IMG/VR virus record: IMGVR_UViG_3300045971_000277
Span: 1 to 31,180 of that record
Strand: one strand, 5' to 3'
DNA length: 31,180 nt
From: a virus
Shown here: in pieces, positions 1,534 through 28,000 of the stretch
How the letters are laid out: each line of letters starts with the position of its first letter
Position numbering within the stretch: position 1 is the stretch's first letter
Translations under genes and position numbers: made by a program
The notes under the pieces: model-generated
Told to the model about the DNA's origin: nothing
The model's input: only the letters and a program-made list of their open reading frames with translations
Databases searched by the model: none

Positions 1534-1534
1534 T

Positions 1535-4495: not shown

Positions 4496-4558
4496 TCTGG
4501 GTTTCTAGCGTAGTGCGGTGAAATTATTATCTACGTGCGGCAATAAATAGGAGTTACA

Positions 4559-4882: not shown

Positions 4883-4884
4883 GC

Positions 4885-5085
4885 ATGACGAAACGGGCGA
4901 AAGTCATCCAGATATCGCCCAAGCCTGAGCCAGTCAGGAAGTCTGAGTCGTATTGGCTATGTGCAGGCTGCAATGATAAGATCTCTATACCGTCTGGTCT
5001 TACTGCAGATGAGTTAGTCGACATGACGCGGTCACACATGGAAGTGTGCGAGCCTACACAATTAGCAAAAGCAGCGAATCAGTAG
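4885..5085 (+). CDS. small zinc-binding-like protein
   Basis: Starts 2 nt after the previous stop; CAGC...HMEVC (C2HC-like). Confidence 0.65.
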   Translation: MTKRAKVIQISPKPEPVRKSESYWLCAGCNDKISIPSGLTADELVDMTRSHMEVCEPTQLAKAANQ

Positions 5086-5096
5086 CCGAGGATACC

Positions 5097-8198: not shown

Positions 8199-8207
8199 GA
8201 GGGTACG

Positions 8208-10811: not shown

Positions 10812-10954
10812 TGCAGGATTACGACACAGAGGTCCCAGCGACCGGGCGTGAGCTTGCTGTCTGCCCATTAGACCCGGAGTATGACCCGGACCTACATGAC
10901 TATACAAGTGAAGGTGATCTTTATACTCCTATAGTCGAGGCACTGGATGAATAA
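10811..10954 (+). CDS. 47-aa acidic peptide (not in ORF track)
   Basis: MQDYDTEVPATGRELAVCPLDPEYDPDLHDYTSEGDLYTPIVEALDE; TAATG overlap at both ends, AAGGA upstream, exactly fills the gap. Confidence 0.7.
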   Translation: MQDYDTEVPATGRELAVCPLDPEYDPDLHDYTSEGDLYTPIVEALDE

Positions 10955-11933
10955 TGCGGTACATAGCTCAGAACATGAGTCAGGGCAACCTGCAGATATC
11001 GTTCCGGTCGCCCAGCCCGAACCAGCGTCAGATCGGCCAGACCATACTGATCCCGCAGGGGTCGGCAGTGGACCTGTTGTCGATACTGCCGGACCTACGC
11101 TATTGGAAAGAGCGGGTCCCGGAGCTACTCAGCCTCCAAGCTCGTGGCAGAATCCGCTTAGAAGTATCGGAGTAAGTCAAATCCGGTACGAGTACCGGTG
11201 CAAGATCTGCCAGCTGTCCAGCAAGGCCCCCACCCTATATAAGAAGCTTCACGAGCTGGTCTTCACTGATCGCATGAGTTGGAATCAGGCGATGAATGAG
11301 GTCAATACTTATATCAAACAGCATGGCATGCAGCTACAGATGTTGAATACGATGAACATGTCAGGTCACTTCAATAAGCATATTCAAATTGAAGACCCGG
11401 TTGTGGCGGCCTACGACAAATTCGACCAGAATGTAGCGACGCCTCCGATTCCAGCTGCAGTACGCGCACTCGTCCCATTGGTCAACAACGCACACCAGTC
11501 GGACGTTGATGACTATCGCAACATGGATGCGATTCGCCAGAAGATTACGGCGCAGCTTGAGAAGCTTGAAGCCCAGTTGGATGTAGTAGACCCGAAGACG
11601 AACCAGAAGAAGCTAGATAAGTGGGCGCTTGAGCTATACACAAAGGTAGTGAAAGAGACCCGCGCATGCATCGTTGACCTCAACGACATGCGTAAGTCCG
11701 AGCGCCTTATGAATAGTGTGGTACAAGCATTACTGGATCGCCTTACGTTTGCTATTATCCCACAGTTGCTTAGTGAGTATACAATGGTAGTAGAGGAGCT
11801 TGATCACGCTCAAGTTCCAAAAGCATTAGTGGATCGAATTGATGACAGACTACGACGGAAGACGGCTGAGATTATAGCGAACACGGCGCGTGCTGCCGTT
11901 ACAGAGGTTCAGCGGCAGTTCAGACTAAGGTAG
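10947..11933 (+). CDS. Zn/HTH-like plus coiled-coil protein, candidate terminase small subunit
   Basis: CKIC...HFNKH metal-binding/HTH-like region followed by long amphipathic helices; upstream of the large terminase. The ORF is solid; function and start are uncertain. Confidence 0.45.
   Translation: MNNAVHSSEHESGQPADIVPVAQPEPASDRPDHTDPAGVGSGPVVDTAGPTLLERAGPGATQPPSSWQNPLRSIGVSQIRYEYRCKICQLSSKAPTLYKKLHELVFTDRMSWNQAMNEVNTYIKQHGMQLQMLNTMNMSGHFNKHIQIEDPVVAAYDKFDQNVATPPIPAAVRALVPLVNNAHQSDVDDYRNMDAIRQKITAQLEKLEAQLDVVDPKTNQKKLDKWALELYTKVVKETRACIVDLNDMRKSERLMNSVVQALLDRLTFAIIPQLLSEYTMVVEELDHAQVPKALVDRIDDRLRRKTAEIIANTARAAVTEVQRQFRLR
10954..11175 (+). CDS. 73-aa hypothetical protein, overlapping the 10947 ORF in another frame
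   Basis: TAATG-coupled to the 47-aa ORF; globular beta/alpha hydrophobic pattern (MRYIAQNMSQGNLQISF...VDLL...ELLSLQARGRIRL). Confidence 0.6.
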   Translation: MRYIAQNMSQGNLQISFRSPSPNQRQIGQTILIPQGSAVDLLSILPDLRYWKERVPELLSLQARGRIRLEVSE

Positions 11934-11942
11934 ACAACGACA

Positions 11943-12386
11943 ATGGATACACTAAATAATGCTCACGTCGTGCTAATTCTAGCAGGATACATTGTCACTC
12001 AAGCTTTAACAGCTACTTTAATCTATTGGGCTCTTAGTCGCCAATCGACTGCGCAAATTAAGAGCCTGTTTGAAAGTCGCGGCAAAGAGCATTTTATCGC
12101 GGGGTTCAACGACGAGCTGAGGTCAACCATCACGCGGGCCATCAAGGAAAGTCAGGCCGACGTACTCACATTGGTTTATGACCACGTAAATAAAGAGCTT
12201 GCCGCCACAACCCAAGTCACGCGTGAACTAGTCTCGGAACGCCTACGTGAGATCGATGCCCGTATTATGGACATGCGCGATGCCCTCCGTAAGATTGACA
12301 TGATGCGCGATGAGATGAGCGTGACGAATAAGATTATTGGCGTCATGAGTGAGCGCCTCAATCGGTTCTTTGAAGAGGCAAAATAA
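11943..12386 (+). CDS. single-pass membrane protein with coiled coil
   Basis: N-terminal hydrophobic helix VVLILAGYIVTQALTATLIYWAL, then heptad-rich helices; TAATG coupling to the next gene. Confidence 0.7.
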   Translation: MDTLNNAHVVLILAGYIVTQALTATLIYWALSRQSTAQIKSLFESRGKEHFIAGFNDELRSTITRAIKESQADVLTLVYDHVNKELAATTQVTRELVSERLREIDARIMDMRDALRKIDMMRDEMSVTNKIIGVMSERLNRFFEEAK

Positions 12387-13444
12387 TGCGGCCACGCCAC
12401 ACTAGCCAGAACGGTATCATGCTACACAAGGGCGACCTTGTGGCCGATGCTGCCTACGCTGGTGTCCCGCGTCTGCTTGATGAAGGTGTCGGCCGCATCC
12501 TGTCGATTAATGCTGGATACGCTAAAGTGGCGTGGCGTGATGGGTCCGAGGACACTGTGCGAGCGGCCGACCTGATCCGTGTGGTGGATCGATATGAGCC
12601 GATGATCCACGAGTCGGCCTACGAAATCCCGAAGTATGTGGCAGGCACCCGCGTAATCTTGGGTAATGGTGACCAAGGCCGCGTTATTGAAGAGGTCATG
12701 GGGCCTACTGGGTTCAAGTCATTCAAGATCAAGATTGAAAAGTCGGTAAGCCCGACCGGAGTTGGCCGCATGGTATATGCGACTAATAACGGGATGTCGC
12801 GAATTGCTTCGATTGAGCCTGATACGTGTGCTGCGTTTAGCAAAGAATCGGGCGAGGTCGTGGCGGTCGTCGGCTGCGAGTTAGTCGTTGGCGAAGCCGA
12901 TCAGCAGGTTGGACTGCAAAAGTACAGCAGTCTGCCGCAGGACCATGGCATGCTGTTTCCGTACGACCCGCCGCGTGCCGTCATGTTCCACATGGGCCGC
13001 GTCAGCTTCCCTATCGACGTTATATTCATCGACCAAAATGGCTATGTGGCCGCGATTGAAGAGTCTCGTGAGCCGGGCGTAGAAGAACATTGGGGCCACG
13101 GTCGGGTATCGGCCGTATTGGAAGTCAACGGTGGCTGGTGCAGCCGTAGTGGCGTTATGATTGGCGACCGTGTTAGACTTGGGTCGCGCCATTCGGCACA
13201 GGAAGCATTTGAGCCTCAACACAATCGGACCGACCACGCGGTACGCCCGGTCGACCCCAAGATGGATCCGAATCGGTTCAAGGGGCACGATGTGCCGGGT
13301 GAAGTTTTGAATAGCGGTGACAGTTTTGCCGGTGCCGGTAATGGACCGGGCCGTGATGATTTCGCGCAGCAGGACTCGACCTTCGGTCGTGATCCGACTA
13401 AGTCGATCGATGGACCGGGTAAAGACGTAACGCGACCCTCATAG
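12386..13444 (+). CDS. multidomain protein: two SH3-like barrels plus DUF192 (UPF0127) domain
   Basis: GLQKY..LPQDHGMLF..MFHMGRVSFPIDVIFID..VLEVNGG..GVMIGDRV (~12860-13185) matches the DUF192 pattern. Confidence 0.8.
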   Translation: MRPRHTSQNGIMLHKGDLVADAAYAGVPRLLDEGVGRILSINAGYAKVAWRDGSEDTVRAADLIRVVDRYEPMIHESAYEIPKYVAGTRVILGNGDQGRVIEEVMGPTGFKSFKIKIEKSVSPTGVGRMVYATNNGMSRIASIEPDTCAAFSKESGEVVAVVGCELVVGEADQQVGLQKYSSLPQDHGMLFPYDPPRAVMFHMGRVSFPIDVIFIDQNGYVAAIEESREPGVEEHWGHGRVSAVLEVNGGWCSRSGVMIGDRVRLGSRHSAQEAFEPQHNRTDHAVRPVDPKMDPNRFKGHDVPGEVLNSGDSFAGAGNGPGRDDFAQQDSTFGRDPTKSIDGPGKDVTRPS

Positions 13445-13452
13445 GTGAATAT

Positions 13453-16101
13453 ATGTTCAAACACAATCGTCAGGCACGCAAGGCATTATACGGGTCGCTG
13501 AAGTCGGCGGCCGGTAGCACCCGTACGGCTAAGCTTAGCTGGTACTTACAGCGGCATGAATCGGGCGACAGCGGCAAGACCGTTACGGCGCAGTCGGCAC
13601 CGAATGAGTCGTTGCAGATGGTGCGTGAGTTACTGAGTGCGTATAGCTGGCCGCAACAGCCTAAGCTATTCTACACCGGTATGCGTCACACCGGAGCCCG
13701 CATGGGGGCGACCGAAGTCGGCAGCGCCGTCATCACGGTCACGGGCGAAGTGCGGACTCCCATTGGGGTCCAGTTGGGCTTCGACGTCCCGGTTGAAATC
13801 CGTGACGGCCAGATGCTAGAGCCGAGCGTGATGCTGGTTAACGGCCACGTTGCCGTGATTTCGCAGTCAGCGATTGACAATCTCATCAATAACAACTCGA
13901 CGTTTGCGGACCAGCCGCTTCGTGGCATGTATCAGGCCCCGATGGATGGCGTAGACAATCAGGAATCCCCACGGATCCCGCGCCGCACCCCCGGCATGTT
14001 CCATATGTCGTCGAAGCAGTCTGCGCTACGTGATTTCATCCGGACTCGCGGCCACAAGGGCACGGAGAAGTTAGCCCAGATGGACGCGCCGTCGGGCGTT
14101 AACGTGACGTCCATCGAACGTATGCCAGCTGAGATTGATGAAGAACCCGGCATGCCGACATTTGCCGTCAGTGGATCATTTAATGGTCAGCCATTTGAAG
14201 TAAACTTGTCAATCGAACTTGATGGCCGCGACATGGAGGCACAGCACGTTGCTGGTGTTGACATATTCGGCACTGACGTTGATAGTACGTTTTTTGATGC
14301 ACAGGAGCAGATATTTGTCGCTATTGGCAATAGCCCAGCATATACCGAAGCCATGAAGGAATATGAGGCTAGTTATACTCAACATCAGGCCCAGATGGAG
14401 CCAGCACCAGCTGCCGTGGCACCATGGGAATTAGAGCAGATGCAGGGGCACACAAACCCTGTGACATTAGAGCAGGGCCCAGCATCAACACGTCCAGGCC
14501 TGCAGAAGTGTCCATCATGCGGTGGCCAGCCGCACCCGACGACCGCGCCCTACTGCAGCTCAAAGTGTCTAAAGCTGGACCAGCAGACAACGCACTTTGA
14601 CCAACGTCGGCGTGGCCAGATGCAGCAACCGGCCCCACAGCAGCCAGCTCCACAACAGCCCGCCGCAGCCCCGCAACAGGGTCAGCAACCGGCGAAGCCA
14701 CAGCAGAAGCAGATGTCGCCGCAGGAGGCTATACAGGGCCTGCAGGGTATTGTACAGAATCTGGCGAAGGAGATGCAGCAGCCAGCAGCACCGAAGGCTG
14801 CCCAGATGCAGTCTGAGGATCCGGACGATTTTGACAATGGCCTTGGCCATCAGTCTGATCCAGTAGGGTACACCGATGAGCAACAAGTCATATCAATAGT
14901 AACAGCGATTGTCAACGGAAAAGAAGTTACAGCGATACCAGAGTTTGGCGGTGGCAGCTACCTCTATGTACTAATTGATGGGCGTGTTCCGAGTGCTGCG
15001 CAGCAGCCAATGGCCGATCTGGCTGGCGATTTACTAGCTGACGCCACATACACGCAAGTTGATTTATCTGGTGTTAAGATAGATGCGTATGATGATTTAT
15101 ATAATTTAGTAAAATCTGGCGAGATTGACCAATACGTTGTTGGTCGCCGCGCGCAGATGCAGTCTGAGGACCCTGACGTCCACCTGTATGGTGAGGACGA
15201 GAGAGAAGAAGCTAGCAAGCCCAGCAAGGGGCGCGAGCAGCACAATAATCATCCGACGTCTGAGTTTATGCCTGGAGCTAAGGTTAAGGTGACAAAGAAG
15301 CTATCGGCACCAACCCGGGGCGGGCCACGCGTTGTGATTGAGTCTGGCGCGTCAGGCCATGTCATCCGCGACATGGATGGCCATGGTAATGAGGTCTACG
15401 TCGGCTTTGAAGATGGCCGCAAGTTCGTTATCCCGGCCCGCTATCTTAGCGGCGGCGTAAAGAAGAAGTCGCAGGCCGAGCCAGAATTTACTAATCTTAC
15501 ACATCCTGACCAAGAGCGCGAGGATGACGACGTAGACCCAAGCATGGTCGAAGAGCAGCAGGAACTGCTTGAGCCCGGCATGTCGGTCCGTACCAAGGAA
15601 GAAATGATGGGGTACGAGATTGAGAATATTCGGTTTATCGAAGGCGATTATAATGGGGGCAAGACGCGTTATGAGGTAGAGGTTAAGTACGCGCCCGATG
15701 GAGTGGCTGACGAGTCGGATGGTGAGCTGCACAACGTGACGATCGCGTTTGAAACGGTTCCGGATCTGAGCGGGTACGGCGTTGACATGTTTCCTAAGAT
15801 AGACTATAGCATGTCTTCACAATTGCTTCCTGCCCCAATCCTAGAAGATGTATTAAAGTACGTAGACGAAAATCTAACAGACCACATTGAGTATGCACGG
15901 ACGCTGGGCGAGACTGAACGGCTTGAGGCGGAAGAATACGAGCGGCAGCGCCATGACGATGAAGCTGGTGCGGCCGAAGACCGTGGCGATCTTGAGCGGC
16001 AGAAGAAGAAAGACGAGCATGCATTCAACAATCCCGACATCAATGATATGATTGGCGACGAATACGAATGGGACGAGCACGACCGCCCACGCAAGGTATA
16101 A
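13453..16101 (+). CDS. modular cassette polyprotein (882 aa), putative head cargo
   Basis: RBS AGGTG; modules separated by A|QM motifs; includes a CPSC..YCSSKC Zn ribbon, an SH3-like domain and acidic domains. Confidence 0.75.
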   Translation: MFKHNRQARKALYGSLKSAAGSTRTAKLSWYLQRHESGDSGKTVTAQSAPNESLQMVRELLSAYSWPQQPKLFYTGMRHTGARMGATEVGSAVITVTGEVRTPIGVQLGFDVPVEIRDGQMLEPSVMLVNGHVAVISQSAIDNLINNNSTFADQPLRGMYQAPMDGVDNQESPRIPRRTPGMFHMSSKQSALRDFIRTRGHKGTEKLAQMDAPSGVNVTSIERMPAEIDEEPGMPTFAVSGSFNGQPFEVNLSIELDGRDMEAQHVAGVDIFGTDVDSTFFDAQEQIFVAIGNSPAYTEAMKEYEASYTQHQAQMEPAPAAVAPWELEQMQGHTNPVTLEQGPASTRPGLQKCPSCGGQPHPTTAPYCSSKCLKLDQQTTHFDQRRRGQMQQPAPQQPAPQQPAAAPQQGQQPAKPQQKQMSPQEAIQGLQGIVQNLAKEMQQPAAPKAAQMQSEDPDDFDNGLGHQSDPVGYTDEQQVISIVTAIVNGKEVTAIPEFGGGSYLYVLIDGRVPSAAQQPMADLAGDLLADATYTQVDLSGVKIDAYDDLYNLVKSGEIDQYVVGRRAQMQSEDPDVHLYGEDEREEASKPSKGREQHNNHPTSEFMPGAKVKVTKKLSAPTRGGPRVVIESGASGHVIRDMDGHGNEVYVGFEDGRKFVIPARYLSGGVKKKSQAEPEFTNLTHPDQEREDDDVDPSMVEEQQELLEPGMSVRTKEEMMGYEIENIRFIEGDYNGGKTRYEVEVKYAPDGVADESDGELHNVTIAFETVPDLSGYGVDMFPKIDYSMSSQLLPAPILEDVLKYVDENLTDHIEYARTLGETERLEAEEYERQRHDDEAGAAEDRGDLERQKKKDEHAFNNPDINDMIGDEYEWDEHDRPRKV
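14803..15178 (+). repeat. 25-nt direct repeat pair (QMQSEDPD) flanking an AT-rich in-frame module
   Basis: CAGATGCAGTCTGAGGATCCGGACG at 14803 and CAGATGCAGTCTGAGGACCCTGACG at 15154 (2 mismatches), 351 nt apart. Confidence 0.85.
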
Positions 16102-16102
16102 C

Positions 16103-16672
16103 ATGCCATTGTATAAAATGTCAGATATCGGCGATCGCGTTAATAAAGAAATTAAGGATCTCAACGAGGCAGAGATCCCAGAGATTGATATCGAAATGGC
16201 GGTTCAGCGTAAGTATCCTGAGGCTGAGCATCTGATTGTTCCCCATGGCGGCAAAGAGGCTCAGCGTGATGTAGCCCCATCGCGGACCGAGCCGATGTTG
16301 ACGGGCGCACATTATGATGAGCGCTCGCAGACCGCGATGGCGTCGTTTGCCATTCAAGATTTTGAGATCGGGCTCCGCTGGTTGCTTAGCACCGATGATA
16401 GGCCGCACTGGATGTTGAATCACAAGGAAGTTGATGAGCAGACTATCGCTGGTTTGTTCCGCTCCGTGCCGCAGGCCAAGCAGGTCCCGGCGATTTTGAC
16501 GATGGCGGCCATTAATGCACTAACGCGGTTTGACGGATTCCGCGAGGCGCTCCAGAGCAATCTCAATGGTGGCCCGCAGTCGACAGCATGGCAGCCGACG
16601 GTTCTGCAGGCTGCACGACTCGACGCGATGTCGCGCCGCGCCTTTGACCAATTTTACCGAAAGCACCGGTAG
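16103..16672 (+). CDS. hypothetical protein
   Basis: Start reassigned to ATG 16103 (AAGGT RBS, 1 nt after the previous stop). Confidence 0.7.
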   Translation: MPLYKMSDIGDRVNKEIKDLNEAEIPEIDIEMAVQRKYPEAEHLIVPHGGKEAQRDVAPSRTEPMLTGAHYDERSQTAMASFAIQDFEIGLRWLLSTDDRPHWMLNHKEVDEQTIAGLFRSVPQAKQVPAILTMAAINALTRFDGFREALQSNLNGGPQSTAWQPTVLQAARLDAMSRRAFDQFYRKHR

Positions 16673-16701: not shown

Positions 16702-17061
16702 ATGGACGAAGAAATCCTAGAACGTTTGACGATCGTATCCGATGCCAGCTCGCGTCAGCTTATTGGCGAAGTTGACGTGACTGAAGGCAATGAGTATGTA
16801 ACGGTAGTACACCCGCTGATGTTCATGGAGCAGAAGAAAGCGGGCGCGGATGGACTGATAGTAACGCCGATGTTCATGCCGGTTCTGCTGTCGGAATACG
16901 TCGAAGCTATGCTGGTACGGCCTATCAGCATTTATACGGTACCGGCTACGTCAAAGCTCGCGATGCTATATCGGGCTGAATGGGACGCTTACTACAAGGC
17001 TGCGAAGGCATCGGAGGCCGGAATCATTATCACGGACAAGATGCCAGATGGCGGCAAATAA
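16702..17061 (+). CDS. Sm-like fold phage protein (putative)
   Basis: RBS GAGGG; QLIGEV...VTVVHPL...FMP...IYTV...LAMLY...AGIII pattern typical of small phage Sm-like proteins. Confidence 0.55.
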   Translation: MDEEILERLTIVSDASSRQLIGEVDVTEGNEYVTVVHPLMFMEQKKAGADGLIVTPMFMPVLLSEYVEAMLVRPISIYTVPATSKLAMLYRAEWDAYYKAAKASEAGIIITDKMPDGGK

Positions 17062-19111
17062 TCTCAACATAGGTAATTACGAGAATAACGACGAGAGTAT
17101 AGATGACTTCTTACTCAATTTCTCGCTCCGTGTCCAGCAAGCTACCCGTATCGCGCCTGCGCCGGAAGAGAAAGACGAAGACTTAAAGTGGGTACGTGAG
17201 CCAGCGCCGAACGCAATCCAGTGGACCGTAGGCCGCAATTGGCTCAACAACCCATCGACGTATAAGTATCAGCGCCAGTATCAAGTCATCCGCGATTTCT
17301 TCGAACTGTATTGCCCGATCTGCAATCCACTAGACCACGAGTCTCGTGATTGCTGGGGCAAGACGCAGATGTATCTCGAGGATGAGGTACTGCTGGAGTG
17401 GAACCCGGCTGAACGCGACGACGTATGCCCAAAGTGCCGGTCGACTCGTAAAGAGTTCGTCGACGATGGCATGTTCAATAACTACAACCAGTTGCACGGT
17501 GTGGTCGGCATGAGAGGTGGCAAGACTGCCACGACCTCTATCATCGCTACGTATTTCGAACATCGCCTCTATAATATCCACTACGAGACTGAGGGTGGTA
17601 TATCGATTGCGCTCCAGCAGCTGCCGGGCCAGCCGTTCGACGTTACTTTCATCGCCTCGTCTGACATCCAGTCGCAAGATACGATTTGGGCTCACTATAT
17701 AGCGCGTCGCCGCCAATCACCGTGGCTGCAGCGTTATATATCGTGGATTAAGAAAGGTGAAGCAGCTGCGCCTAAACTACCTGGGGTCAAGTCCAATGTA
17801 TATGAAGAGCTAGAAAAGTCGATTACGAACGGCCATTTGAACGTAACGTTCGGGTCAATGAATAGTAACTCGTCCGGTCTAGCTGGGCGTACTCGCCTTG
17901 CTGCATTTATCGACGAATTATCGCGCTTCCAAAATACCGAATCGCGTATGTCAGCCGATGAAGCTTACCGCGTTCTTGAAAACTCGCTCGCTACGGTACG
18001 GACAATGGCGGCCAAGTCTGGCCTGCCGTCCTACCTTGGCCTGATGGGCTCGATTTCATCGCCGATCTCGATCGAAGACAAGGCAATGCGGCTGTGGTTC
18101 CAGTCGCCCGATATTAAGCGCATGTATGCGTTTAAATATCCGACGTGGCTGTTCAATCCATTCATCACCCGAGCCGATCTTGATGACGCGTTTATTAAGG
18201 ACTATGTAGGTGCGAAGCGCGACTTCGGCGCGGATCCGCCGGCCGCCACGTCTCCGCTGATCGAGGATGAAGAGCATTTTAGACGGCAGACGATTGCGCC
18301 AGACTTAAAGCCGACGACGCGAATCGAGTACTACGTCAAGACAGACAAGGTGGGTAACCAGTATAAGGCGGCCCGCGCATTGTCGACCGACTTTGACTCG
18401 CAGGTTGAACGCTTCGTCGTGTTTGACGCTGGCCTGACGTTCGACACGTTCGCTGGCGCCGCTGCCCATGGTGAGTGGGTTGAGACCGAGGAAGGTCCGG
18501 TCTGGATGACGATTTTCGATTGGATTCTACGGGTGCTACCAGAGAAACATCCAGTCCGTATGGATGTGTGGTTTGATTCTGTCCTAGACATCATTAAGAT
18601 ACATAAAGTAAAGCAACGAATCGCACGGGTTGAGTTTGACCGATGGAACTCAGCCCATCTGATCCAAAGCATCCGCGATATGTCAGTACCAGCTGAGCAT
18701 AAGGGTACGGTCGTCACGGACTTCGTTAAGTTCGTGGCCGATGCTAATATGGGTAAGGTGCGCCTACTACCACCGCTCGAGGATGACCATAAGGTCGAGC
18801 CACACCTGATGAGTCCAGCCGGTACCGTGTTCTATGAAATGGCCCGGATGGAGCGGTCGCCGGACTTGCGTAAAATCTTTAACCCGAAGAAGGGTGAGCG
18901 GATCGGCTGGAACTCAGACGACGTCGCACAGTGCGTCGTCCATGCCCACCGTATGGTGCAGGAGGTTATTGCTGTGGACCAGCACGGTGCCCATAATTCT
19001 CCAGAGATGCGCCTGCGTAACGAAACCGTGGGTGGGGCATCGTGGGCACGTGGCAGGGGTGGTGGCCGGGTCTTTGTACCTAAACAGAATATAGGAACGC
19101 GAGGTTGGTGA
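17048..19111 (+). CDS. terL: terminase large subunit
   Basis: Walker A GMRGGKT, Walker B AAFIDE, coupling motif ISS, RNase H-like nuclease acids FDAG, FDRWNS and SDDVA; N-terminal CPIC/CPKC Zn insertion. Confidence 0.93.
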   Translation: MAANNLNIGNYENNDESIDDFLLNFSLRVQQATRIAPAPEEKDEDLKWVREPAPNAIQWTVGRNWLNNPSTYKYQRQYQVIRDFFELYCPICNPLDHESRDCWGKTQMYLEDEVLLEWNPAERDDVCPKCRSTRKEFVDDGMFNNYNQLHGVVGMRGGKTATTSIIATYFEHRLYNIHYETEGGISIALQQLPGQPFDVTFIASSDIQSQDTIWAHYIARRRQSPWLQRYISWIKKGEAAAPKLPGVKSNVYEELEKSITNGHLNVTFGSMNSNSSGLAGRTRLAAFIDELSRFQNTESRMSADEAYRVLENSLATVRTMAAKSGLPSYLGLMGSISSPISIEDKAMRLWFQSPDIKRMYAFKYPTWLFNPFITRADLDDAFIKDYVGAKRDFGADPPAATSPLIEDEEHFRRQTIAPDLKPTTRIEYYVKTDKVGNQYKAARALSTDFDSQVERFVVFDAGLTFDTFAGAAAHGEWVETEEGPVWMTIFDWILRVLPEKHPVRMDVWFDSVLDIIKIHKVKQRIARVEFDRWNSAHLIQSIRDMSVPAEHKGTVVTDFVKFVADANMGKVRLLPPLEDDHKVEPHLMSPAGTVFYEMARMERSPDLRKIFNPKKGERIGWNSDDVAQCVVHAHRMVQEVIAVDQHGAHNSPEMRLRNETVGGASWARGRGGGRVFVPKQNIGTRGW

Positions 19112-21207
19112 TGCGGCCGTACTACATTAGGCGTGCTGCCGTTGACATCGTCACGGAGCCAGAAGCAAAATCGACGCAGCCGTCGGGTAAGCTATCGCCC
19201 GAGACAGAGTATCCAGCGGGTGAGCAGTCGTCGTCGCAGTCCGGCGCCCCGTCTACAATGAAGGGCCTGCCACTGGTCGCGGAGTCTGACACGATAACAT
19301 TAGCCGATGTGGTGCGGATGGCCGAGATTGGTCAGGACTTAGATGACCTGACGACATCGCCGCCACCGCAGGGCGATTCCAAGATGACGTCAGTCCACAA
19401 TCAGGGTGATTCATATACGAATGACAACACGGGCGAAGGCACGATCCACATGGGCGCGATCGGGTCGAAGCCGTCGACGTATCCACCGCATTCGTCCGGC
19501 GACGGTCCGCTAGGTGAGCGGTTCGACGACACCGACGACATTATCGTGCACGCCACGGTCGGCACTGGTCGGGATCCGTATCGGGTTGGGTCGCTGTATT
19601 CATATAACGAACTGATACCGCAGCACCAGCATGAAGTTGATATTAACTGGAAGCGCCGCCGTGGCCGCCACTTCATGTGGTTACGTACATCGATGCGCCT
19701 GCCGGAGTTGCTATCAGAGTCACGTGAATGGTACGACAAGAACCGCGATAGCAAGTGGAAGATTGCGGATCGCGAGCGTGTCGTTGATCTAGCCGAAGTC
19801 TTCATGAAAGGTGCGACCGTCACACCGCTGTTGGTGTCACCCGTAGGTGAGGTCAACGGTGGGCTATGGGAAGGCTACCACAGGCTGAACGCACTTGATA
19901 TATTGGCGGCCCAGTCTGTACCGGTGCTGATGAAGGTTGACCTGCGTGACACCGACTGGAAGATCAAGCTAGCCGATGAGCAGCGTGAGCCGTGGGTCGC
20001 GGTTGACCTTGACGGCACCATATTGAACGAGGGGCCACACGAGGGCGACGGACGGCCTCCGCTGGGTGAGCCGTTCCCGGGTGCCAAGGAAGTCCTACAG
20101 AGCTTCATGGATCAAGGTTACCGCGTATCGATCTGGACTGCACGTCAGTATTTCGAAGACGACGACAGCGAAGGCGCTGAATGGCAGGCCGAGATTGATA
20201 AGCACCTCAAGTATCACCAAATCCCGTATAGTGACATCTACGTCGGCAAGAAGCCACCTGCGGACGCCTTTATTGACAACAAGGCTATACATTTCGATGG
20301 TAGTTGGCCCGATATGGCCAAGCAGACCGAGATGATGCTGCGCCAGGGTCACATCCGGATGATGGCGAAGAAGCACACTGGATGTTTCATTGGTCTGACG
20401 GTACCGGCGAAGGCCGCGAGTGCTCTGGCGGTCGAAGGCGGCGAGTCCGCTGATAGTATGCACGTCACGATGTTTTATCAGAAGGGCGTGACGGACGAAG
20501 AGGCGGCCAAGATAGAAGAAATTTGGACTGAACTATGGGATCAGTATCGGCCGCTACGGATCAAGCTAAGCAAGACTGATGTATTTGATGCGAGTGAGCA
20601 TTCGGACAATAAGGAAGTCTTAATCTGCCCGATTGACAGCGATGATATTCAAGAGCTGCACTCAACGCTGTTGGAGCGTATCGAGTCGGCCGGAATCGAG
20701 CTGCGACAGAGCTTCCCCGACTATAAGCCGCATGTGACGCTAAAGTATTTAGATGATGGTGAAGAGTATCCGGATCACATTGATCATGTTAGCTTTGAAA
20801 TCGATCAATATGAGTTTGATCCAGGTAGTGGTGTCGAGAAGGAAGCCCATGACGGCACCTTCTCGATATCGGACGACGCGGCAGATTCGTATACCGATGT
20901 TGACGGTTCCCGTGGCGACCTGTCGGTTGATCGGGCTCCGTCGACCGAACATCTGAAGCGTGGGGCGGTGGAGTTTAAGTGGCTGAAGACCGAGGGAATA
21001 AACAAATCATACATCTGCATGGTAGGTGATGAAAGGGTTGGATACGCTACCGGAGCAAGGCTGTTAGGCCAGATGGAAAATAAGCCGTGGGCTGCATATA
21101 AGATAGTAAAGGGATGCGAGATATTTATTGGTCACTACGCTACGGTATTCAAGGGTGGCGACCGTGGTGCCGCGCATGCAATTGAGGCGACATACACGAA
21201 GCGCTAG
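19111..21207 (+). CDS. multi-enzyme protein: ParB/Srx-like + HAD phosphatase + 2H phosphoesterase (Acb1/LigT-like) + small C-terminal domain
   Basis: TGATG overlap with terL and GAGG RBS; LWEGYHRL (ParB-like); VAVDLDGT, WTAR, KPPADAFID (HAD); MHVTMFY and YKPHVTLKY (two HxT motifs). Confidence 0.85.
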   Translation: MRPYYIRRAAVDIVTEPEAKSTQPSGKLSPETEYPAGEQSSSQSGAPSTMKGLPLVAESDTITLADVVRMAEIGQDLDDLTTSPPPQGDSKMTSVHNQGDSYTNDNTGEGTIHMGAIGSKPSTYPPHSSGDGPLGERFDDTDDIIVHATVGTGRDPYRVGSLYSYNELIPQHQHEVDINWKRRRGRHFMWLRTSMRLPELLSESREWYDKNRDSKWKIADRERVVDLAEVFMKGATVTPLLVSPVGEVNGGLWEGYHRLNALDILAAQSVPVLMKVDLRDTDWKIKLADEQREPWVAVDLDGTILNEGPHEGDGRPPLGEPFPGAKEVLQSFMDQGYRVSIWTARQYFEDDDSEGAEWQAEIDKHLKYHQIPYSDIYVGKKPPADAFIDNKAIHFDGSWPDMAKQTEMMLRQGHIRMMAKKHTGCFIGLTVPAKAASALAVEGGESADSMHVTMFYQKGVTDEEAAKIEEIWTELWDQYRPLRIKLSKTDVFDASEHSDNKEVLICPIDSDDIQELHSTLLERIESAGIELRQSFPDYKPHVTLKYLDDGEEYPDHIDHVSFEIDQYEFDPGSGVEKEAHDGTFSISDDAADSYTDVDGSRGDLSVDRAPSTEHLKRGAVEFKWLKTEGINKSYICMVGDERVGYATGARLLGQMENKPWAAYKIVKGCEIFIGHYATVFKGGDRGAAHAIEATYTKR

Positions 21208-21255: not shown

Positions 21256-24200
21256 ATGAGCATCGAGATTTTTGGATCGTATGGCAACCCGCGCCAGCAG
21301 GCAGCGAAGCCCAGCAATATGCCGGGTGGTCTAACGGCGACGCAGACGGAGCAATTGGCATCGCGTTTTGAAACAATGATGCCAAGCATCACGTCTGGTG
21401 CGGCCGATCCTAGCCGGATTCAGAAGCTATTCACCGACACCCTACCGAAGGGTGCCAATTGGGATCCGCGTACGTCCAAGACTGCCCAGATGGGATCTAA
21501 CATCTCTGGTATGGGTGGCAGTAGCGGCGGCAAGACAATGATGACGAACCAACGGCCTTACCAGCCTGAGTTCGAATGTTACCTACATGGGACTACATTG
21601 TCGTACATGGACGGCACTACAGTCGAAATCCAAAATGCTAAAGTAGGCGATAAAGTTTTGGATAAGCTTGGACATATCCAAACCGTTGAACGCTGGTGGT
21701 GTAGTGGTAATCCAGAAGAATTAATGGAAATTATGTTGTGGGGTGGAGTGAAGTTATACTCTACTACCAACCATAATCACCATGTATTTAAGATGCCGCG
21801 TGAATGTCCGACGGGCTGCGGACTACAGCACTTCCACAATAAACGATACGGGGCGCAGCATTTTGGTGGCGTCGGCACGAATCAAGTGACGATGCCGAAG
21901 CAGTATTTCAAGATTGAAAAGCTACCGGCTGGCGAGATAGTGCAGGGTGATTATCTCATGATGCCGCGTAAGTTTGACGAAATCGAGACGGATGTAACGC
22001 CAGATCGAGCCCGTCTTCTTGGCTATTATATAGCAGAAGGTGATGCGGCAGGCGGCAATGGCATTCAATTTACCTTTGGTTCGCATGAATTAGATACACT
22101 AGTAAAAGATACCGTAGCGATTCTAAGCTCTGAGTTTAATGTGGCTGCGGGGATGTCTGATCGTCGGACGCACGCGAGGCCAGCAAACGCCATAACGATT
22201 AGAAGCTCTACTACCAGCGCACGAGCTGCTGCGGAATGGTTTATACGACACGGTGGCCAATATTGTTATACGAAGCGGCTGTCGGCTGATGTGATGCGAT
22301 GGCCGCTTGTCTTGAAGGAAGAGTTAGTGCGTGGCATGTATCGTGGCGATGGCAGCCAGTTCTATGTCAAAACCGAGAAGGATGGCTACGTCAGCTACAG
22401 ATTCGATTGTACTTATACGACGACGTCAAAGCAACTTGCGTCACAGCTACAGTTAGTACTGGCCCAGCTTGGCATTTTTGCTAAGATTAAACATAAGAAG
22501 GCTAAAAAGCGTGAGACTGGCATCAATGAATCAGATTGTTATGTTCTTATATCGCGCGCCGATCATGGTGGCAGGCTTGCCGACTTAGTATGGGGCGAGG
22601 ATTCGCTATTTAAGTCGGACTCGTCTGCGCCGACTGAATCACACTACTTAGTTGATGCCGATTACATTTACATAGAAGTAAAGTCGGCTAAGGTCGTTCA
22701 GAATGATCAACCCGTATATAACTTAACGGTATCGGGCGATCACTCATATCTTGTCTACAATGTAGGCACATATAACTCGCCCGACCGCCAACAGTATCCG
22801 GTCCACCGCATCCTAGCCAATCGATACTGGCGCCTGTTCTATAAGATGGACCCGGTCATCGGCAACTGCATCGACATGTACGGCGACATGCCGTGGTCGC
22901 CGTTTAAGCTGACCGGTCCAGGCGTCGAGGGCTCCATCCTAAATACGATGGAGGCTACGGCCCAAGAGTCAGGGCTGATGCACACGCTACCGGCGATGAC
23001 GAAGGAATTCTTCATCACGGGCGAGGCAATTCCCCACCACTTCTTTGACGACGCCAAGGGGTATTGGACCTATATAGCCCTACACAATCCAGACCAGCTG
23101 GAAGTGATCGACGCGCCATTTATCAAGATGGACCCCATCATGGAGTTCGTGCCGGATGACCGGCTTCGGTCCATTATGGGCTCCAATCATCCAGCGCTGC
23201 GTAAGGTGCGAGATCAGATGCCGCCGCAGCTGCAGTCGCTGCTGCAGGCTCGTCAAAATATACCGCTATCCAACATCAACGCGACCTTTATCCCGCGTAA
23301 GCTACATCCGTACGATACGCGTGGTACATCAATCTTCTCCCGCCTCTGGCGTATCTTCATGTATGAGGACGCCATATTTAATGCGAGTATCCAGACGGCC
23401 CGTCGCCACGCTGGCCCGCTTAAGGTCGCCAAGTTAGGTAATGCACAGACCGGTTGGATCCCGGGCCCAGAGCACGAGGCAAAGCTCTTGCAGCTTCTGG
23501 CCCAGGCCGAGCTTGACCCGCATGCATGGCTCGTCTACCACTATGGTATCGCGTTCGAAACGGTCGGCACAACCGACCGTATGATGACGATTAACCGTGA
23601 ATGGGAAATCATCGAGCGTATCAAGTTGGTCGCGCTTGGCATCTCTAAGAGCTTCCTCACGGGCGAGGTAACATATGCATCAGCCGCTACCGGCTTGCAG
23701 GTCTTCTTGCAGCGTCTCAAAGCACTGCGCAATTTCTTTGAACAAAAGTACATTATCCCGAAGTTTTTCCTACCGCTTGCTGAAATTAATGGCTGGATTC
23801 GTCGATCGCCTGCTGAAATCCAACATCAGTTCCGCATTAAGCGAAGCCATCAAGAACTCCTAAATGAGCAGCGCTACATCGTACCCAAGATTGTGTGGGA
23901 GAAGTCGCTAGACCCAGCGATCGATCAGGCACTTGTGACCGCTATGCAGGCGCTCGAGAACATGGGAGTCAAGTTTAGCAAGACGACCAAGATGGCGACG
24001 GTCGGAATCGCGTTCGAAGAGGAAGCTCGCAAGATCGCTCAGGAAGAGCAATTTGAGCGCCAGTTCCTGCCGAAGCTCCCGTCACAGCAGCCGCCCGAAG
24101 GTGGCGGTGGAGGCGGGGGTGGCGTCGGTGGCATGTCGGGCGGTCCAGAGCCGATGCCCGCGCCGGGTAATGAGGGCGATACGTCGGGCGCGGAGCAGGC

Positions 24201-24801
24201 CGGTGGCGGCACAGCTGGCCCGCCCGGTCCAACGCCGGAACCGGCTGCACTCAAGACGCAGGCGGGCGAAGGCAAGAAGACTGATGAGGTTCAGTCGATC
24301 GAATCGCACGAGCCCGGGTACGCGGAGAACACTAAGCTACTTCGGTCTAAGATTTGGCGTGACAATCGCTACGGCAATTGGGACGCGGAAGAGGCCGAAG
24401 ATATTATTGAACTTCTACATACGGCCACCACTGATTCTCCGTTCTGGACTAAGCTGAGCAAGGATCCAGAGTTCATGGCGGCGCTCAAGTCGGAAGAGCC
24501 CGGCGCGGTGTGGCACGAGATGGAGAAGTATCTGACGAAGTGTGGCTATCCAGACCAAGATCAGGATGAGCTATACGATATCTTGGTGGCCGAGAATGTG
24601 ATGCCGAAGCGTGACCTAGAACATCTGCAGGAGATCGAAAAGCAGATGGAGGCTGAATTTGTCGGTAGCGATCCAAACCTGCTGGTCGGCGCGTCGACAG
24701 CAGCTACCGGCAATCTCAGTGGTGACATTACTGAACGCCTCATGAAGGCCCGCAAGGCCAATGCGAAGGCGACGAAGCCTAAGTCGAAGAAGAGGAAATA
24801 G
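21256..24801 (+). CDS. portal protein (intein-containing; ~781 aa after splicing)
   Basis: Lies between terL and the protease; RLFYKMDPVIGNCIDMY and RGTSIFSR..RRHAGPLKVAKLG segments resemble portals of large myoviruses; Gly/Pro-rich C-terminal extension. Confidence 0.85.
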   Translation: MSIEIFGSYGNPRQQAAKPSNMPGGLTATQTEQLASRFETMMPSITSGAADPSRIQKLFTDTLPKGANWDPRTSKTAQMGSNISGMGGSSGGKTMMTNQRPYQPEFECYLHGTTLSYMDGTTVEIQNAKVGDKVLDKLGHIQTVERWWCSGNPEELMEIMLWGGVKLYSTTNHNHHVFKMPRECPTGCGLQHFHNKRYGAQHFGGVGTNQVTMPKQYFKIEKLPAGEIVQGDYLMMPRKFDEIETDVTPDRARLLGYYIAEGDAAGGNGIQFTFGSHELDTLVKDTVAILSSEFNVAAGMSDRRTHARPANAITIRSSTTSARAAAEWFIRHGGQYCYTKRLSADVMRWPLVLKEELVRGMYRGDGSQFYVKTEKDGYVSYRFDCTYTTTSKQLASQLQLVLAQLGIFAKIKHKKAKKRETGINESDCYVLISRADHGGRLADLVWGEDSLFKSDSSAPTESHYLVDADYIYIEVKSAKVVQNDQPVYNLTVSGDHSYLVYNVGTYNSPDRQQYPVHRILANRYWRLFYKMDPVIGNCIDMYGDMPWSPFKLTGPGVEGSILNTMEATAQESGLMHTLPAMTKEFFITGEAIPHHFFDDAKGYWTYIALHNPDQLEVIDAPFIKMDPIMEFVPDDRLRSIMGSNHPALRKVRDQMPPQLQSLLQARQNIPLSNINATFIPRKLHPYDTRGTSIFSRLWRIFMYEDAIFNASIQTARRHAGPLKVAKLGNAQTGWIPGPEHEAKLLQLLAQAELDPHAWLVYHYGIAFETVGTTDRMMTINREWEIIERIKLVALGISKSFLTGEVTYASAATGLQVFLQRLKALRNFFEQKYIIPKFFLPLAEINGWIRRSPAEIQHQFRIKRSHQELLNEQRYIVPKIVWEKSLDPAIDQALVTAMQALENMGVKFSKTTKMATVGIAFEEEARKIAQEEQFERQFLPKLPSQQPPEGGGGGGGGVGGMSGGPEPMPAPGNEGDTSGAEQAGGGTAGPPGPTPEPAALKTQAGEGKKTDEVQSIESHEPGYAENTKLLRSKIWRDNRYGNWDAEEAEDIIELLHTATTDSPFWTKLSKDPEFMAALKSEEPGAVWHEMEKYLTKCGYPDQDQDELYDILVAENVMPKRDLEHLQEIEKQMEAEFVGSDPNLLVGASTAATGNLSGDITERLMKARKANAKATKPKSKKRK
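21577..22776 (+). mobile_element. intein with LAGLIDADG homing endonuclease (400 aa) in portal
   Basis: EFE|CYLHGT block A, TTNH block B, LLGYYIAEG and VRGMYRGDG LAGLIDADG helices, VYNLTV..HSY block F, TYN|S end; lower GC than the exteins. Confidence 0.93.
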
Positions 24802-24806
24802 GTAGT

Positions 24807-24830
24807 CTAGTAATATCTTTATATTACTAG
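24807..24830. other. AT-rich perfect 10-bp hairpin/palindrome after the portal stop
   Basis: CTAGTAATAT-CTTT-ATATTACTAG, followed by a second small hairpin GTGAAT-AGA-ATTCAC (24834-24848); no U-tract. Confidence 0.6.
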
Positions 24831-24887
24831 CGTGTGAATAGAATTCACTATCAAGGAAGGTCGCTCCGCACGTGTATCCGAGGCTCT

Positions 24888-25010
24888 ATGGGTTTTCATA
24901 AAACTGGACTTGCCACATCGTTAGGTATCGTAGAGCAGCCTAAGCAGGCTGAGAAGCCACCGGAGTCAGTTGAAAAGCCCCAACCGAAGCAAGCACAGCC
25001 GGTTAAATAA
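24888..25010 (+). CDS. 40-aa peptide coupled to the protease gene (not in ORF track)
   Basis: GAGG RBS; MGFHKTGLATSLGIVEQPKQAEKPPESVEKPQPKQAQPVK; TAATG overlap with the protease start. Confidence 0.7.
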   Translation: MGFHKTGLATSLGIVEQPKQAEKPPESVEKPQPKQAQPVK

Positions 25011-28000
25011 TGAGTTTCGTCAGGTACGCTAAGATACAAGTACTAGCCTCATGGGAAGTCGATCAAGACGGCCATAGCAGAATCGCGCACGCGAATGTAA
25101 CGGCAGCGGAAGCCCCGCTGCCGTCGTTCTATGCGAATCCTGGCAACCCCGGTACGTTGGATGTCAAAGAAGCCCTAGCGAAGGTTTCGAAGCAATATGA
25201 TATCAGTGCTGACCCGCGTGAATACATTTTTGAAGCGGTACGAGCCGTCACCGCAGGCGTATCTAATGAGAATGGCGACGCTTTTCATCGTGACGAACTT
25301 CTTCGTTTCGATCATCGCCTTGGCTGCGCAGTTTATCAGACTTTTATCCTAAAGCCACACCACGTTAATCACCGCGCCGAGAATCCTAAGACGGCCCGTG
25401 GCGTTATCCTAGATTCACACTACAACGACACCGCGCCTGCCTTAGAGATGTGCCCAAAGGAAGGTTGCGGCAATCGTACAGCAGAGCGTGAAGGCCGTGA
25501 CCGTACCGGCATCTACTGTAAGGCTTGCGGCACCACGGTCAAGGATGAATTCGTTGAGGTCCTGTTGGCCGTCAATGCATCGAAGGACCCGTCGTTTGCC
25601 GAAGGCGTGCGGACCGGCGTACTGAATGCGACCTCGATGGGCTGCTTTGTCCCAGGCACTCTTGTTACGATGGCAGATGGCAGCCGTAAGGCCATTGAGG
25701 CTGTTGTGCCGGGCGATTTTGTTATCACCCACACTGGCGCGGTGGCTGAGGTAGATGAAACCTCCGAACACGCTTGTGATGACGACATTGTTAGTATTTC
25801 TGTTGCGGGTGTGCAGGCCGACATCGTAGCCACTAATGACCATCCATTCTGGGTTGTAGATCGCGACACCAACTCTGGCAAGTGGGTGCACGCGTGTGAA
25901 GTTAAGCAGGGTGACTACTTACTTAGCCCGAAGCGCGACACTAAGCCAGTTGAAATAGACATTAAGTTAGCACGCCTAGCAGGGTATTTTGCTGCAGAAG
26001 GTAACTTTATTAGAGCTTACGATGGTCCGCTATCTGGCGAGCGAGTTGGGGTTGAGTTCTCTCTGAATGCGACAGAAACATGCTATTTAGATGAGATCCA
26101 AAAACTATTGATAGATCTTGGCGCCGATCCAAAGCGCTACGTGCGGGCTGACCGTAACATTGGCGTTGTTAAGGCGTATCGTTGCAAGGAGTTAGCTGAT
26201 AAGTTATTGCAACTAGTCGGCGAGCATGCACACAATAAGCATCTGTCCGATGAGATTTACGGTTGGCCTCGCGAAGCCCAGTTAGCATTTGTTGGCGCCA
26301 TCATTAATGGCGATGGTTTTGGCATTCACGAATACGGACATTCATGGACCCAGTTCACGTCTGTGAGCCAAGACCTTTGTGATCAAGTATCTCAGTTATT
26401 GGTTAACCTTAATATCCCACATCGCACTTCTGTTACAGCTAAGCGTTCCGGGTTTGGTTCTGAACGTCCCGTTTATGACCTGCATATAACAGGCGACTAT
26501 CAATTGGAGTTGGCTACTTCTACCGACAAGGTTAAGAAGACCTCTGCCACTGGTAATAAGATGGTTGCCAGTGTTCCATCTGATGCTGGCATTCTTCGTA
26601 AGGTGCGTAAGGTTGAACCAATCCAGTATACCGGAAACGTATATAATTTCGGCGTAAAACACGACGATCACTCTTACGTAGCGGGTGGCATTGCGGTTCA
26701 CAATTGCGTGTGCGACTCCACCACATGCAACGTGTGCGACCACGTCGCCTATAACAAGAGCGAGTTCTGCACTCACATCCGTGCAGGCAACAAGAAGAAG
26801 ACATTCAAGACGGCGGCAGGCGAGCGTGTCGCGTTTGAGTGGTGCAATAACGTCGTGTTTACCGAGCTAAGCCGGGTTGACCAGCCAGCTGACCCGACCG
26901 CACTACAGCAGGAGATTCTCGAGTTCACGGCGAAGATTGAACAAGAATCGACGAAGCCAGAAGCGCTCCGGAATGAGACTGAGCTACTCATCCTGTCGAA
27001 ACGCCTAGCCGACCTCAACGTTAGGGTGGCACAGATGCAGAAAGTGCCTGCCCCGCAACAGACCGACGCTCCCGCGCCGGGTCCAAAAGAGAACGCAGAG
27101 CTACCACAAGATAAACCGGACCAGTCAGCTAAGGTGCCGATACAGGAATTTGCTGACGGTAAAGAAGAGAAAGAGAAGAACGAAGAGGCACCCAGCCTTG
27201 CCGCAGTTGGCATCGATCCGGAGTCGATCGGTGCAGGTCACATCGCCGGACTTTCGGATCAATATTTAGCAGAACTAGACGCAGCAGCCAATCACGTGGC
27301 AACCAAGCCCGAGGGAGTTATAATGTCACAGTTTAAGTTCAAGACAGCATATAAGGATATGCGCCTGCAGGTAACTAAGCAGGGTAACTATCGGGTCTTT
27401 AACGATGCCGGTACCGTTTTCGTCGTCCGTCCGGAGCCGAAGGTGGCGGTGGCGGATCGCAAGGAGTTCGGCATCGGCATCATGCGTGACATTGCTGATA
27501 CCGGCATCGTCGCGACTGCCAAGAAGTACAGCGTGGCCTTCGGCCCGCGTACTGCTAGCGTCCTAGAGCATCACCTCGAGGATTTCGAGAAGGGCCGCGA
27601 CGAGGGCGACACCAAGCCTGCTACGGCTGACGGCATGCGTGATCACGCCGACAGCGAGCACGGCACGCCTAAGAAGAAGATGACGGAAGGCGTTGAGCGC
27701 GACCACGCTGAAAGCGAGCACGGCAAGCCGAAGCAGACCGTGACGGAAGACCACGTTGAGGATATCGAGGATGGCCGCAAAGAGGCCCCGGATACCGCCG
27801 TGGGTGAAGAGAACACGGTCAACAAGGACAAGCACCCGAAGAAGACAGTCAAGGACAACGTGCTGGACGACGCTGTCGTGGACCATGCTGAGGGCAAGAA
27901 CAAGAAGAAGGCTCAGGCGGATGAGAAGTCCAAGCCGTCCAAGTCTACGTCCAAGCCGTCTACGTCCAAGCCGTCTACGTCCAAGCCGTCGAAGAAGGAT

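Follow-up and report, generated by a model that had tools for sequence, protein, structure and literature searches.

A multidomain head-module protein from an uncultured giant phage: a probable phage-type polyvalent protein

What is a protein of 698 amino acids (aa) with several enzyme signatures doing between the genes for terminase and portal of a giant phage? The open reading frame (ORF) that raises this question lies at 19111-21207 (+ strand) of IMG/VR virus record IMGVR_UViG_3300045971_000277, and the stretch analyzed here, referred to as the window, comprises positions 1 to 31,180 of that record (31,180 nt). Our best interpretation is that it belongs to the phage-type polyvalent proteins as defined by Iyer et al. 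2017. An earlier note on this DNA had placed three enzyme signatures (ParB-like, HAD, and 2H) in this one ORF between terminase and portal, which agrees with both the domain matches and the matches of the flanking genes. Likewise, the coordinates of EGYHR (19870, E254), KIKLA (19960-19974), DLDGT (20005, D299), RMMA (20356, R416), the two HVT motifs (20461, H451; 20731, H541), EKEA (20839), and KRGA (20956) agree with the translation. All three enzyme signatures are genuine, and they look catalytically intact.

Polyvalent architecture and its relatives

The following features were mapped within the ORF:

19111-21207, + strand: whole ORF, putative polyvalent head-module protein (698 aa; ATG start, with the start and the terminase stop overlapping as TGATG)
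19129-19227, + strand: N-terminal linear motif, residues 7-39, consensus AAVNIVDEPE...LSxPxEYPAGEQ (aligned in 9 relatives)
19291-19545, + strand: "mid" region, residues 61-145, polar and probably disordered, with motifs DSYTNDNTGEG..HMG and PHSSGDGP (composition, alignment)
19558-19959, + strand: ParB/sulfiredoxin-fold (ParB/Srx) domain, residues ~150-283 (AlphaFold2 [AF2] model, sulfiredoxin/ParB fold matches, phrog_1033)
19960-19989, + strand: ParB-HAD linker WKIKLADEQR (alignment of relatives)
19990-20346, + strand: capless HAD phosphatase domain, residues 294-412 (phrog_1238, 2obb/1xpj alignments, fold matches)
20362-20826, + strand: 2H phosphoesterase domain, residues 418-572 (PF13563 match, AF2 model, Foldseek)
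20863-20961, + strand: tail motif, residues 585-617, GDNxxDxYTDVDGSRxDLxIxRxPSxE plus 3-6 residues (12 relatives aligned)
20965-21204, + strand: orphan C-terminal domain, residues 619-698 (80 residues), appended beyond the end point of the relatives

The assignment to the polyvalent class draws on the chain itself, its genomic location, and its homologs. Several unrelated domains are joined in one chain (ParB/Srx, HAD, 2H, and the orphan C-terminal domain); the gene lies among the virion genes of a portal-terminase phage, with a protease and a major head protein downstream; and its homologs have combinatorial architectures that share catalogued polyvalent domains. Iyer et al. listed 2H, InPase, and ParB as domains specific to polyvalent proteins of the phage type, for which they predicted packaging (PMC5512222), and a paper that shares authors with theirs proposed that 2H domains, when fused to MuF or portal, are probably packaged to counter oligonucleotide signaling (PMC9503650). 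As these two papers already predict packaged 2H proteins, the suggestion in the earlier note of a capsid-delivered kit for counter-defense or RNA-end repair re-derives a published hypothesis. It matches the prediction made for phage polyvalent 2H proteins, and also the domains that accompany these enzymes in relatives (MuF, XkdF-type head protease, ART, SLT, and InPase).

Like the proteins described by Iyer et al., the ORF 19111-21207 protein combines unrelated enzymes in one chain, is encoded among virion genes, belongs to a family with gain, loss, and reordering of modules, and carries a 2H domain (InPase in relatives). Unlike them, it contains no MuF, metallopeptidase, or ADP-ribosyltransferase (ART) domain. 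A HAD domain is not treated by Iyer et al., in whose text "haloacid" and "phosphatase" occur 0 times (PMC5512222), and the ParB domain described there is DdrB-like, whereas the ParB fold in the present protein has no Pfam ParB match and DdrB-ParB is not among the listed Pfam matches. A second group for comparison consists of MuF-2H-ART head proteins (e.g., P0039, P0047, and actinophage fusions annotated as "RNA ligase" or capsid morphogenesis proteins), whose 2H domain is 39-40% identical over ~160 aa and is likewise encoded in the head module. However, these proteins have a MuF anchor and are encoded after the portal gene, whereas ours has no MuF and is encoded before it. New features are the fixed slot between terminase and portal, the always-linked ParB/Srx-HAD core, the family-specific N- and C-terminal motifs, and, in the present protein, the orphan 80-residue C-terminal domain.

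A search of 5.8 billion clustered proteins found 23 relatives with a common ParB/Srx-HAD core (residues ~103-421), in which the two domains are always adjacent and in unchanged order. The 2H domain is located C-terminal to this core in the ORF 19111-21207 protein, P0003, and P0005, and N-terminal to it in P0004, P0006, and P0007; InPase (PF18823) replaces or joins 2H in P0011-16 and P0019-23, and some relatives consist of the ParB-HAD core alone. A wider set of relatives keeps "mid," HAD, and InPase without ParB. In the more distant relatives, "mid" is located directly N-terminal of HAD, and this mid-HAD architecture was found in at least 14 proteins. HMMER returned 1887 matches at E<1e-3, with HAD and 2H recurring in proteins of 500-3400 aa. 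Domain content was scanned for 30 of these proteins in one batch and 17 in two partly overlapping follow-ups. The partner domains found in the scanned HAD/2H homologs were InPase (11), Peptidase_S78_2 (4), and His_Phos_1 (3), with Phage_Mu_F, ADP-ribosyltransferases, SLT, CTP_transf_like, RelA_SpoT, NUDIX, mCpol, GNAT, and Gln_amidase as further partners, and HAD and 2H neighbor each other in at least seven architectures that otherwise differ.

The InPase domain of the relatives (P0013, residues 173-297) is homologous to residues 629-750 of portal protein gp19 of Pseudomonas phage Pa193 (PDB 9b41 chain L; E 8.9e-19). As the published cryo-EM model of this portal covers residues 94-528 (PMC11456595), and thus stops at residue 528, its InPase-like domain is probably a flexible portal appendage.

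The gene order terminase, this gene, portal, and protease fusion is shared by four loci, i.e., the window, Virus Rctr197k, and two further loci (L003 and L004). The gene in the slot varies in length, encoding 2175 aa in Rctr197k (with GNAT and a C-terminal HAD), 515 aa in L003, and 878 aa in L004. When related loci were searched for with the single protein, none was found in viral contigs; the alignment-based search recovered one locus from viruses and two from metagenomes, and had no match in 185,579 species genomes. Because no related locus is present in these species genomes, they give no prophage or host clue.

The ParB/Srx-HAD core and the 2H domain

The ParB-like EGYHR and HAD DLDGT signatures that the earlier note had picked out coincide with matching folds, identified by Foldseek and structure matching, and with invariant catalytic residues. 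The ParB/Srx domain matches phrog_1033 only weakly (E 0.0038), but its model superposes on sulfiredoxin 6ky4 with Z 8.6 and a root-mean-square deviation of 2.4 over 78 residues. Foldseek matched the same model to the N-terminal domain of pNOB8 ParB, PadC, Noc, and CTP/CDP-bound ParB (prob 0.96-1.0). Across 20 sequences, GGLWEGYHR is nearly invariant, with E254, G255, H257, and R258 invariant. The AF2 model of residues 140-420 has a predicted local distance difference test (pLDDT) score of 85 and a predicted template modeling score of 0.81, with pLDDT 85-93 over the ParB-HAD linker.

The HAD domain matches phrog_1238 (E 9.6e-16), and its phmmer alignments to 2obb and 1xpj take in the stretch from DxDGT to the Lys and Asp motifs. 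Motif I reads D299-L-D301-G-T303, and D299, D301, T303, K381, D385, and D389 are invariant across the relatives. The closest fold matches of the HAD model are 2obb (Z 11.1), MDP-1 (Z 10.8), NT5C-like deoxyribonucleotidases (Z about 9-10), T4 Pnkp 3'-phosphatase (Z 9.7), and GmhB and HisB-N (Z about 8.6-9); the protein scores below the cut-offs of the generic Pfam HAD models. It thus shares with the BT0820 and VC APC26283 HADs (2obb and 1xpj) and with T4 Pnkp a minimal capless HAD fold of ~120 aa, DxDGT, and the Lys/Asp motifs. It differs from the 2obb/1xpj HADs in scoring far below the family cut-offs (NF046079: 22.8 bits vs. a cut-off of 165), and in always following ParB/Srx or "mid."

For the 2H domain, the earlier call of a 2H signature with two HVT motifs is confirmed by PF13563 above its cut-off (E 1.3e-10, 42 bits vs. 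a cut-off of 27) and by the Foldseek 2H matches. Both motifs (H451-V-T453 and H541-V-T543) are unchanged in all 24 aligned sequences, and the AF2 model of residues 415-698, built from the 24-sequence alignment, has pLDDT >90 over residues ~418-575. In Foldseek, this model matched the Deinococcus radiodurans cyclic phosphodiesterase 5h7e (2.7e-6), archaeal and Escherichia coli LigT/ThpR, and, at rank 4, phage FBB1 Acb1 (7t26, E 2.4e-5), with prob 1.0 to many 2H structures. Both Foldseek and the profile search of PDB sequences identified the 2',3'-cyclic phosphodiesterase 5h7e as the best solved relative. The viral proteins that match it best in structure are large head-morphogenesis proteins from actinophages, with the annotation structural, capsid morphogenesis, or "RNA ligase."

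The earlier note had further called this domain Acb1-like, based on a resemblance to the second HxT region of T4 Acb1. The resemblance itself was recovered, as FPDYKPHVTLKY and FDDYTPHITLSY are identical at 8 of 12 positions (BLASTP aligns only this segment), but the name does not follow from it: the 2H profile lies as close to E. coli ThpR as to T4 Acb1, and the Acb1 Pfam score is just below the cut-off. With T4 Acb1 (taken from the T4 record by PF23474), hhalign gave prob 79.5 and E 1.5e-5 over 106 columns at 17% identity, with both HxT motifs aligned, vs. prob 68.5 and E 4.6e-5 over 112 columns at 21% identity with ThpR. The domain scores 42 bits with PF13563 as given above, 28.2 with LigT_PEase, 26.6 with Acb1 (PF23474; cut-off 27), and 21 with AKAP7. 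In the PDB-sequence profile search, 5h7e was matched at 9.4e-11, and Acb1 at 0.009 over 16 residues.

These results bear on whether the protein contains a true Acb1 ortholog, i.e., an anti-CBASS nuclease cleaving 3'3'-cGAMP and related signals, fused to helper enzymes. We consider this improbable. The near-threshold score (which reaches 27.2 bits in one 44%-identical relative, P0031), the Foldseek rank, the alignment of both HxT motifs, and the identity around the second motif would agree with it. Nevertheless, the curated Pfam cut-off is not reached, PF13563 scores higher, the hhalign score is the same for ThpR, and the Acb1s of T4 (152 aa) and FBB1 (144-aa chain) are small stand-alone proteins, whereas the present domain belongs to a head-module chain of 698 aa. 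The LigT/ThpR group (5h7e, E. coli ThpR, PF13563/TIGR02258) provides the best profile and Foldseek matches, with full-length alignments that include both HxT motifs; the domain differs from this group in its 29 bits vs. the TIGR02258 equivalog cut-off of 65.7, and in its viral, fused, and structural-operon context. The domain is therefore predicted to be a 2H enzyme with a weak claim to Acb1 membership.

Predicted delivery and function

Taken together, the polyvalent class, delivery with the virion, and a role as a nucleotide or RNA-end phosphoesterase make up a reading that we hold to be about evenly balanced between right and wrong. The protein would be co-translated with the head proteins and packed into the procapsid close to the portal, its terminal motifs serving as address or processing signals, and would then enter the host alongside the DNA. 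In the host, the 2H domain would open phosphodiester bonds, either cyclic or 2'-5'/3'-5', in nucleotide signals or RNA ends, the HAD domain would strip the terminal phosphate left by 2H, and the ParB/Srx domain would bind or hydrolyze NTP, or nick nucleic acid. The partner domains of the relatives are mostly nucleotide-centered (InPase, NUDIX, RelA/SpoT, mCpol, and nucleotidyltransferase), and we therefore lean toward host signaling nucleotides, so that host nucleotide immune signals are preferred as the target over broken tRNA, although only narrowly. If packaged and active, the protein would be a compact case of a phage importing ready-made phosphoesterases that could act before phage gene expression. 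In the literature searched, we found no experimental test of the packaged 2H/InPase-type effectors predicted by genomics.

Several points weigh against this reading. The ParB/Srx assignment consists of a modeled fold plus one motif; no Pfam ParB model is above its cut-off, and the protein has no Pfam ParB match at E<=0.1, while ParB_N (PF02195) in two relatives reaches 19 bits vs. a cut-off of 26.3; divergence may conceal membership in the Pfam ParB families. The HAD domain is about as similar to polynucleotide 3'-phosphatases as to small-molecule phosphatases, and among solved structures the 2H domain is best matched by RNA 2',3'-cyclic phosphodiesterases, which favors RNA ends equally with signaling nucleotides. 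Domain scans found no MuF (PF04233), portal, or protease domain inside the protein. Further, the phage is uncultured with a record only ~48% complete, and we infer packaging, injection, and substrates alike.

The resemblance of both hydrolases to RNA-processing enzymes raises the possibility of RNA-end healing, in which the 2H domain would hydrolyze 2',3'-cyclic phosphates left by host anticodon nucleases or other metal-independent RNases, the HAD domain would act as a T4 Pnkp-like 3'-phosphatase, NTP-dependent phosphotransfer could come from the ParB/Srx domain, and a ligase encoded elsewhere would seal the ends. Besides the T4 Pnkp phosphatase, the HAD fold matches Pnkp1 of the Pnkp1/Rnl/Hen1 complex (Z 8.9), and phrog_415 ("polynucleotide kinase") is matched at E 2.8e-5; the 2H domain has 5h7e, LigT/ThpR, and TIGR02258 among its matches; and the relatives include two with 2H-SAK (the RNA-repair "Swiss Army Knife") and one with RNA_lig_T4_1. 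However, no P-loop kinase, Rnl1, Rnl2-type ligase, or RtcB was found in the protein or in the 102-kb record, which holds about half of the genome (PF13671, PF09414, and PF01139 had no match there, and the PF09511 control matched nothing anywhere), and the protein does not qualify as a T4 Pnkp-type enzyme. In addition, the partner domains are mostly nucleotide-centered rather than ligases or kinases, and repair enzymes are normally early genes, for which a site in the head operon would be unusual. We thus regard RNA-end healing as possible but rather unlikely.

Another explanation starts from the position of the gene. The start of the ORF overlaps the terminase stop, and ParB-like nuclease domains are often encoded beside terminase genes. 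The protein might accordingly be an accessory of packaging or assembly that is not delivered, with its ParB-like domain acting on phage DNA together with terminase and its hydrolases acting in the cytoplasm late in infection. Such a role would leave unexplained the interchangeable hydrolase cargo, the relatives that have HAD, InPase, and "mid" but not ParB, and the company of MuF, protease, and ART that the homologous domains keep, and it has in our view little chance of being correct. The delivered polyvalent protein described above remains our preferred reading.

Terminal motifs, possible processing, and genome context

The N-terminal motif is set in a low-complexity, probably disordered stretch. 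The tail motif forms the extreme C-terminus in most relatives, and is internal in the ORF 19111-21207 protein and P0015. Both motifs may be address or processing signals. In a hidden Markov model search of all ORFs of this genome and the three related loci, the terminal motifs were present in the orthologous gene only, and a general tag of the head proteins of this phage is ruled out for this reason. As a separate observation, DSYT[ND] occurs twice in the ORF, at 19411-19425 (residues 101-105, in "mid") and at 20884-20898 (residues 592-596, in the tail motif).

It is tempting to view the gene between terminase and portal in this clade of giant phages as a programmable cargo slot, in which the terminal motifs would act as capsid or portal address or processing tags and any enzyme placed between them (ParB/Srx-HAD, 2H, InPase, GNAT, and others) would be loaded and injected, and the ParB/Srx-HAD pair could be an unrecognized two-step unit (NTP-dependent phosphotransfer or hydrolysis, then dephosphorylation) acting on nucleotides or nucleic-acid ends. 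We put this forward as a tentative idea that is more probably wrong than right. Nonetheless, the family offers a natural experiment, in which the slot and the terminal motifs are constant while the cargo changes, and which could reveal capsid loading signals of giant phages; the ParB/Srx-HAD pairing is also a reasonable target for biochemistry.

The orphan domain begins where the relatives end: the closest of them, P0003 (76% identity), ends with ...EHLKR, at which point the ORF 19111-21207 protein continues with GAVEF.... The domain has no sequence homologs in phages, the 5.8-billion-protein set, or 155 relatives, and no similarity to the small proteins encoded in the terminase-portal gap of Pseudomonas phage Lauda or phage NCTB. 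It has low confidence in the AF2 model of residues 415-698, and its ESM Atlas model resembles viral hypothetical proteins of 74-78 aa and DUF2969 (TM 0.65-0.72). P0003 itself shows a further module gain, with an insertion of ~270 aa (residues 6-279) just after the conserved MLPYY start and without a Pfam match.

The earlier note had also read the protein as a polyprotein with a basic-x-Ala-like site before each domain. As a rival to an intact multidomain chain, a head protease might cut at Ala-containing linkers (pre-ParB ..HA, K-x-A, and post-HAD ..M-x-A), at the terminal motifs, or at both, and so free ParB, HAD, 2H, and C-terminal pieces in the capsid; such processing could go together with each of the functional readings above. 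Three of the five proposed sites (IVHA, KIKLA, and RMMA) are indeed located on Ala-containing boundary motifs conserved in the family, i.e., N[IM]xx[HF]A before ParB, [KR][VLI]A[QD] in the ParB-HAD linker, and I[TS]M[ED]AA after HAD. The site pattern as proposed fared less well, since IVHA and RMMA deviate from the strict pattern, EKEA and KRGA are not conserved, and the frequency is at chance ([KRH]xA occurs 11 times in the ORF vs. 7.3 +/- 2.3 in shuffles, p ~0.08).

The linker follows the consensus W-x-x-[KR]-[VLI]-A, in which A288 never varies; [KR]xAQ is present there in 11 of 20 relatives, vs. KLAD in the ORF 19111-21207 protein, which contains no [KRH]xAQ at all. The strict linker site thus appears to have been lost from this protein, and cleavage is possible in the family. 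In the genome, [KRH]xAQ is enriched (32 vs. 13.7 +/- 4.1 in shuffles), and 24 of the 32 are in the large ORFs upstream of the terminase (1535-16672), the portal, and the protease fusion (21256-29374). This distribution fits a linker or a processing motif. The motif [KRH]xAQ is likewise enriched in 19 relatives (22 vs. 6.2 +/- 2.3 in shuffles); of these 22, 12 are at the ParB-HAD linker and the other 10 are all between mapped domains. The second gene downstream encodes a head-maturation protease domain, as would suit cleavage. On the other hand, the constant adjacency and order of ParB and HAD and the confidently modeled linker fit a structural element equally with a cut site. The T4/phiKZ-type head proteases cut at (S/A/G)-x-E, which occurs 18 times in the ORF vs. 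12.4 +/- 3.0, barely above chance; cuts at YPAGE|Q and PSTE|H would be speculation. Overall, processing into separate pieces seems doubtful.

The public gene call of this protein (P0002, 649 aa) begins at M50 and thus omits 49 residues encoded by 19111-19257 of the window. Residues 7-39, upstream of M50, are kept in nine relatives in the alignment, and because of this conservation ATG 19111 is the better start; GAGG is located 6 nt 5' of it.

The viral record, with an estimated completeness of 48%, is 101.9 kb long, and the window covers its first 31 kb; the full genome is thus probably ~200 kb. The uncultured giant phage from which it comes has Virus Rctr197k, a relative with a 43% identical terminase, as its nearest named phage. 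The flanking genes are:

17048-19111, + strand: large terminase subunit (phrog_17415 E 3e-49)
21256-24801, + strand: portal with LAGLIDADG intein (phrog_16240 E 2e-75; PF14528, PF14890)
25010-29374, + strand: 1454-aa ORF with N-terminal head-maturation protease, Hint/LAGLIDADG insert, and long extension (phrog_18299 E 4.7e-26)

The portal intein spans ~21600-22760 (PF14528, LAGLIDADG homing endonuclease, E 1.1e-11, and PF14890), and the portal homologs of L003 (773 aa) and Rctr197k (795 aa) are without this insert. In ORF 25010-29374, the protease domain covers residues 48-140 and the Hint/LAGLIDADG insert residues ~212-565; the L003 homolog has 1359 aa. This protease falls in one group with its counterparts from phiRSL1, BcepSauron, and Erwinia jumbo phages, and is followed 3' by a 252-aa ORF and then the major head protein. 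Elsewhere in the window, an HNH endonuclease gene is present at the start (81-668; PF01844 E 3.9e-15), and a 352-aa ORF (12386-13444) upstream of the head module contains a DUF192 domain (PF02643 E 1.3e-24). In L003, the terminase (25-3657, 1210 aa) carries an insert of ~500 aa matching endonuclease- and helicase-like PHROGs; this insert probably represents a further mobile insertion into a head gene.

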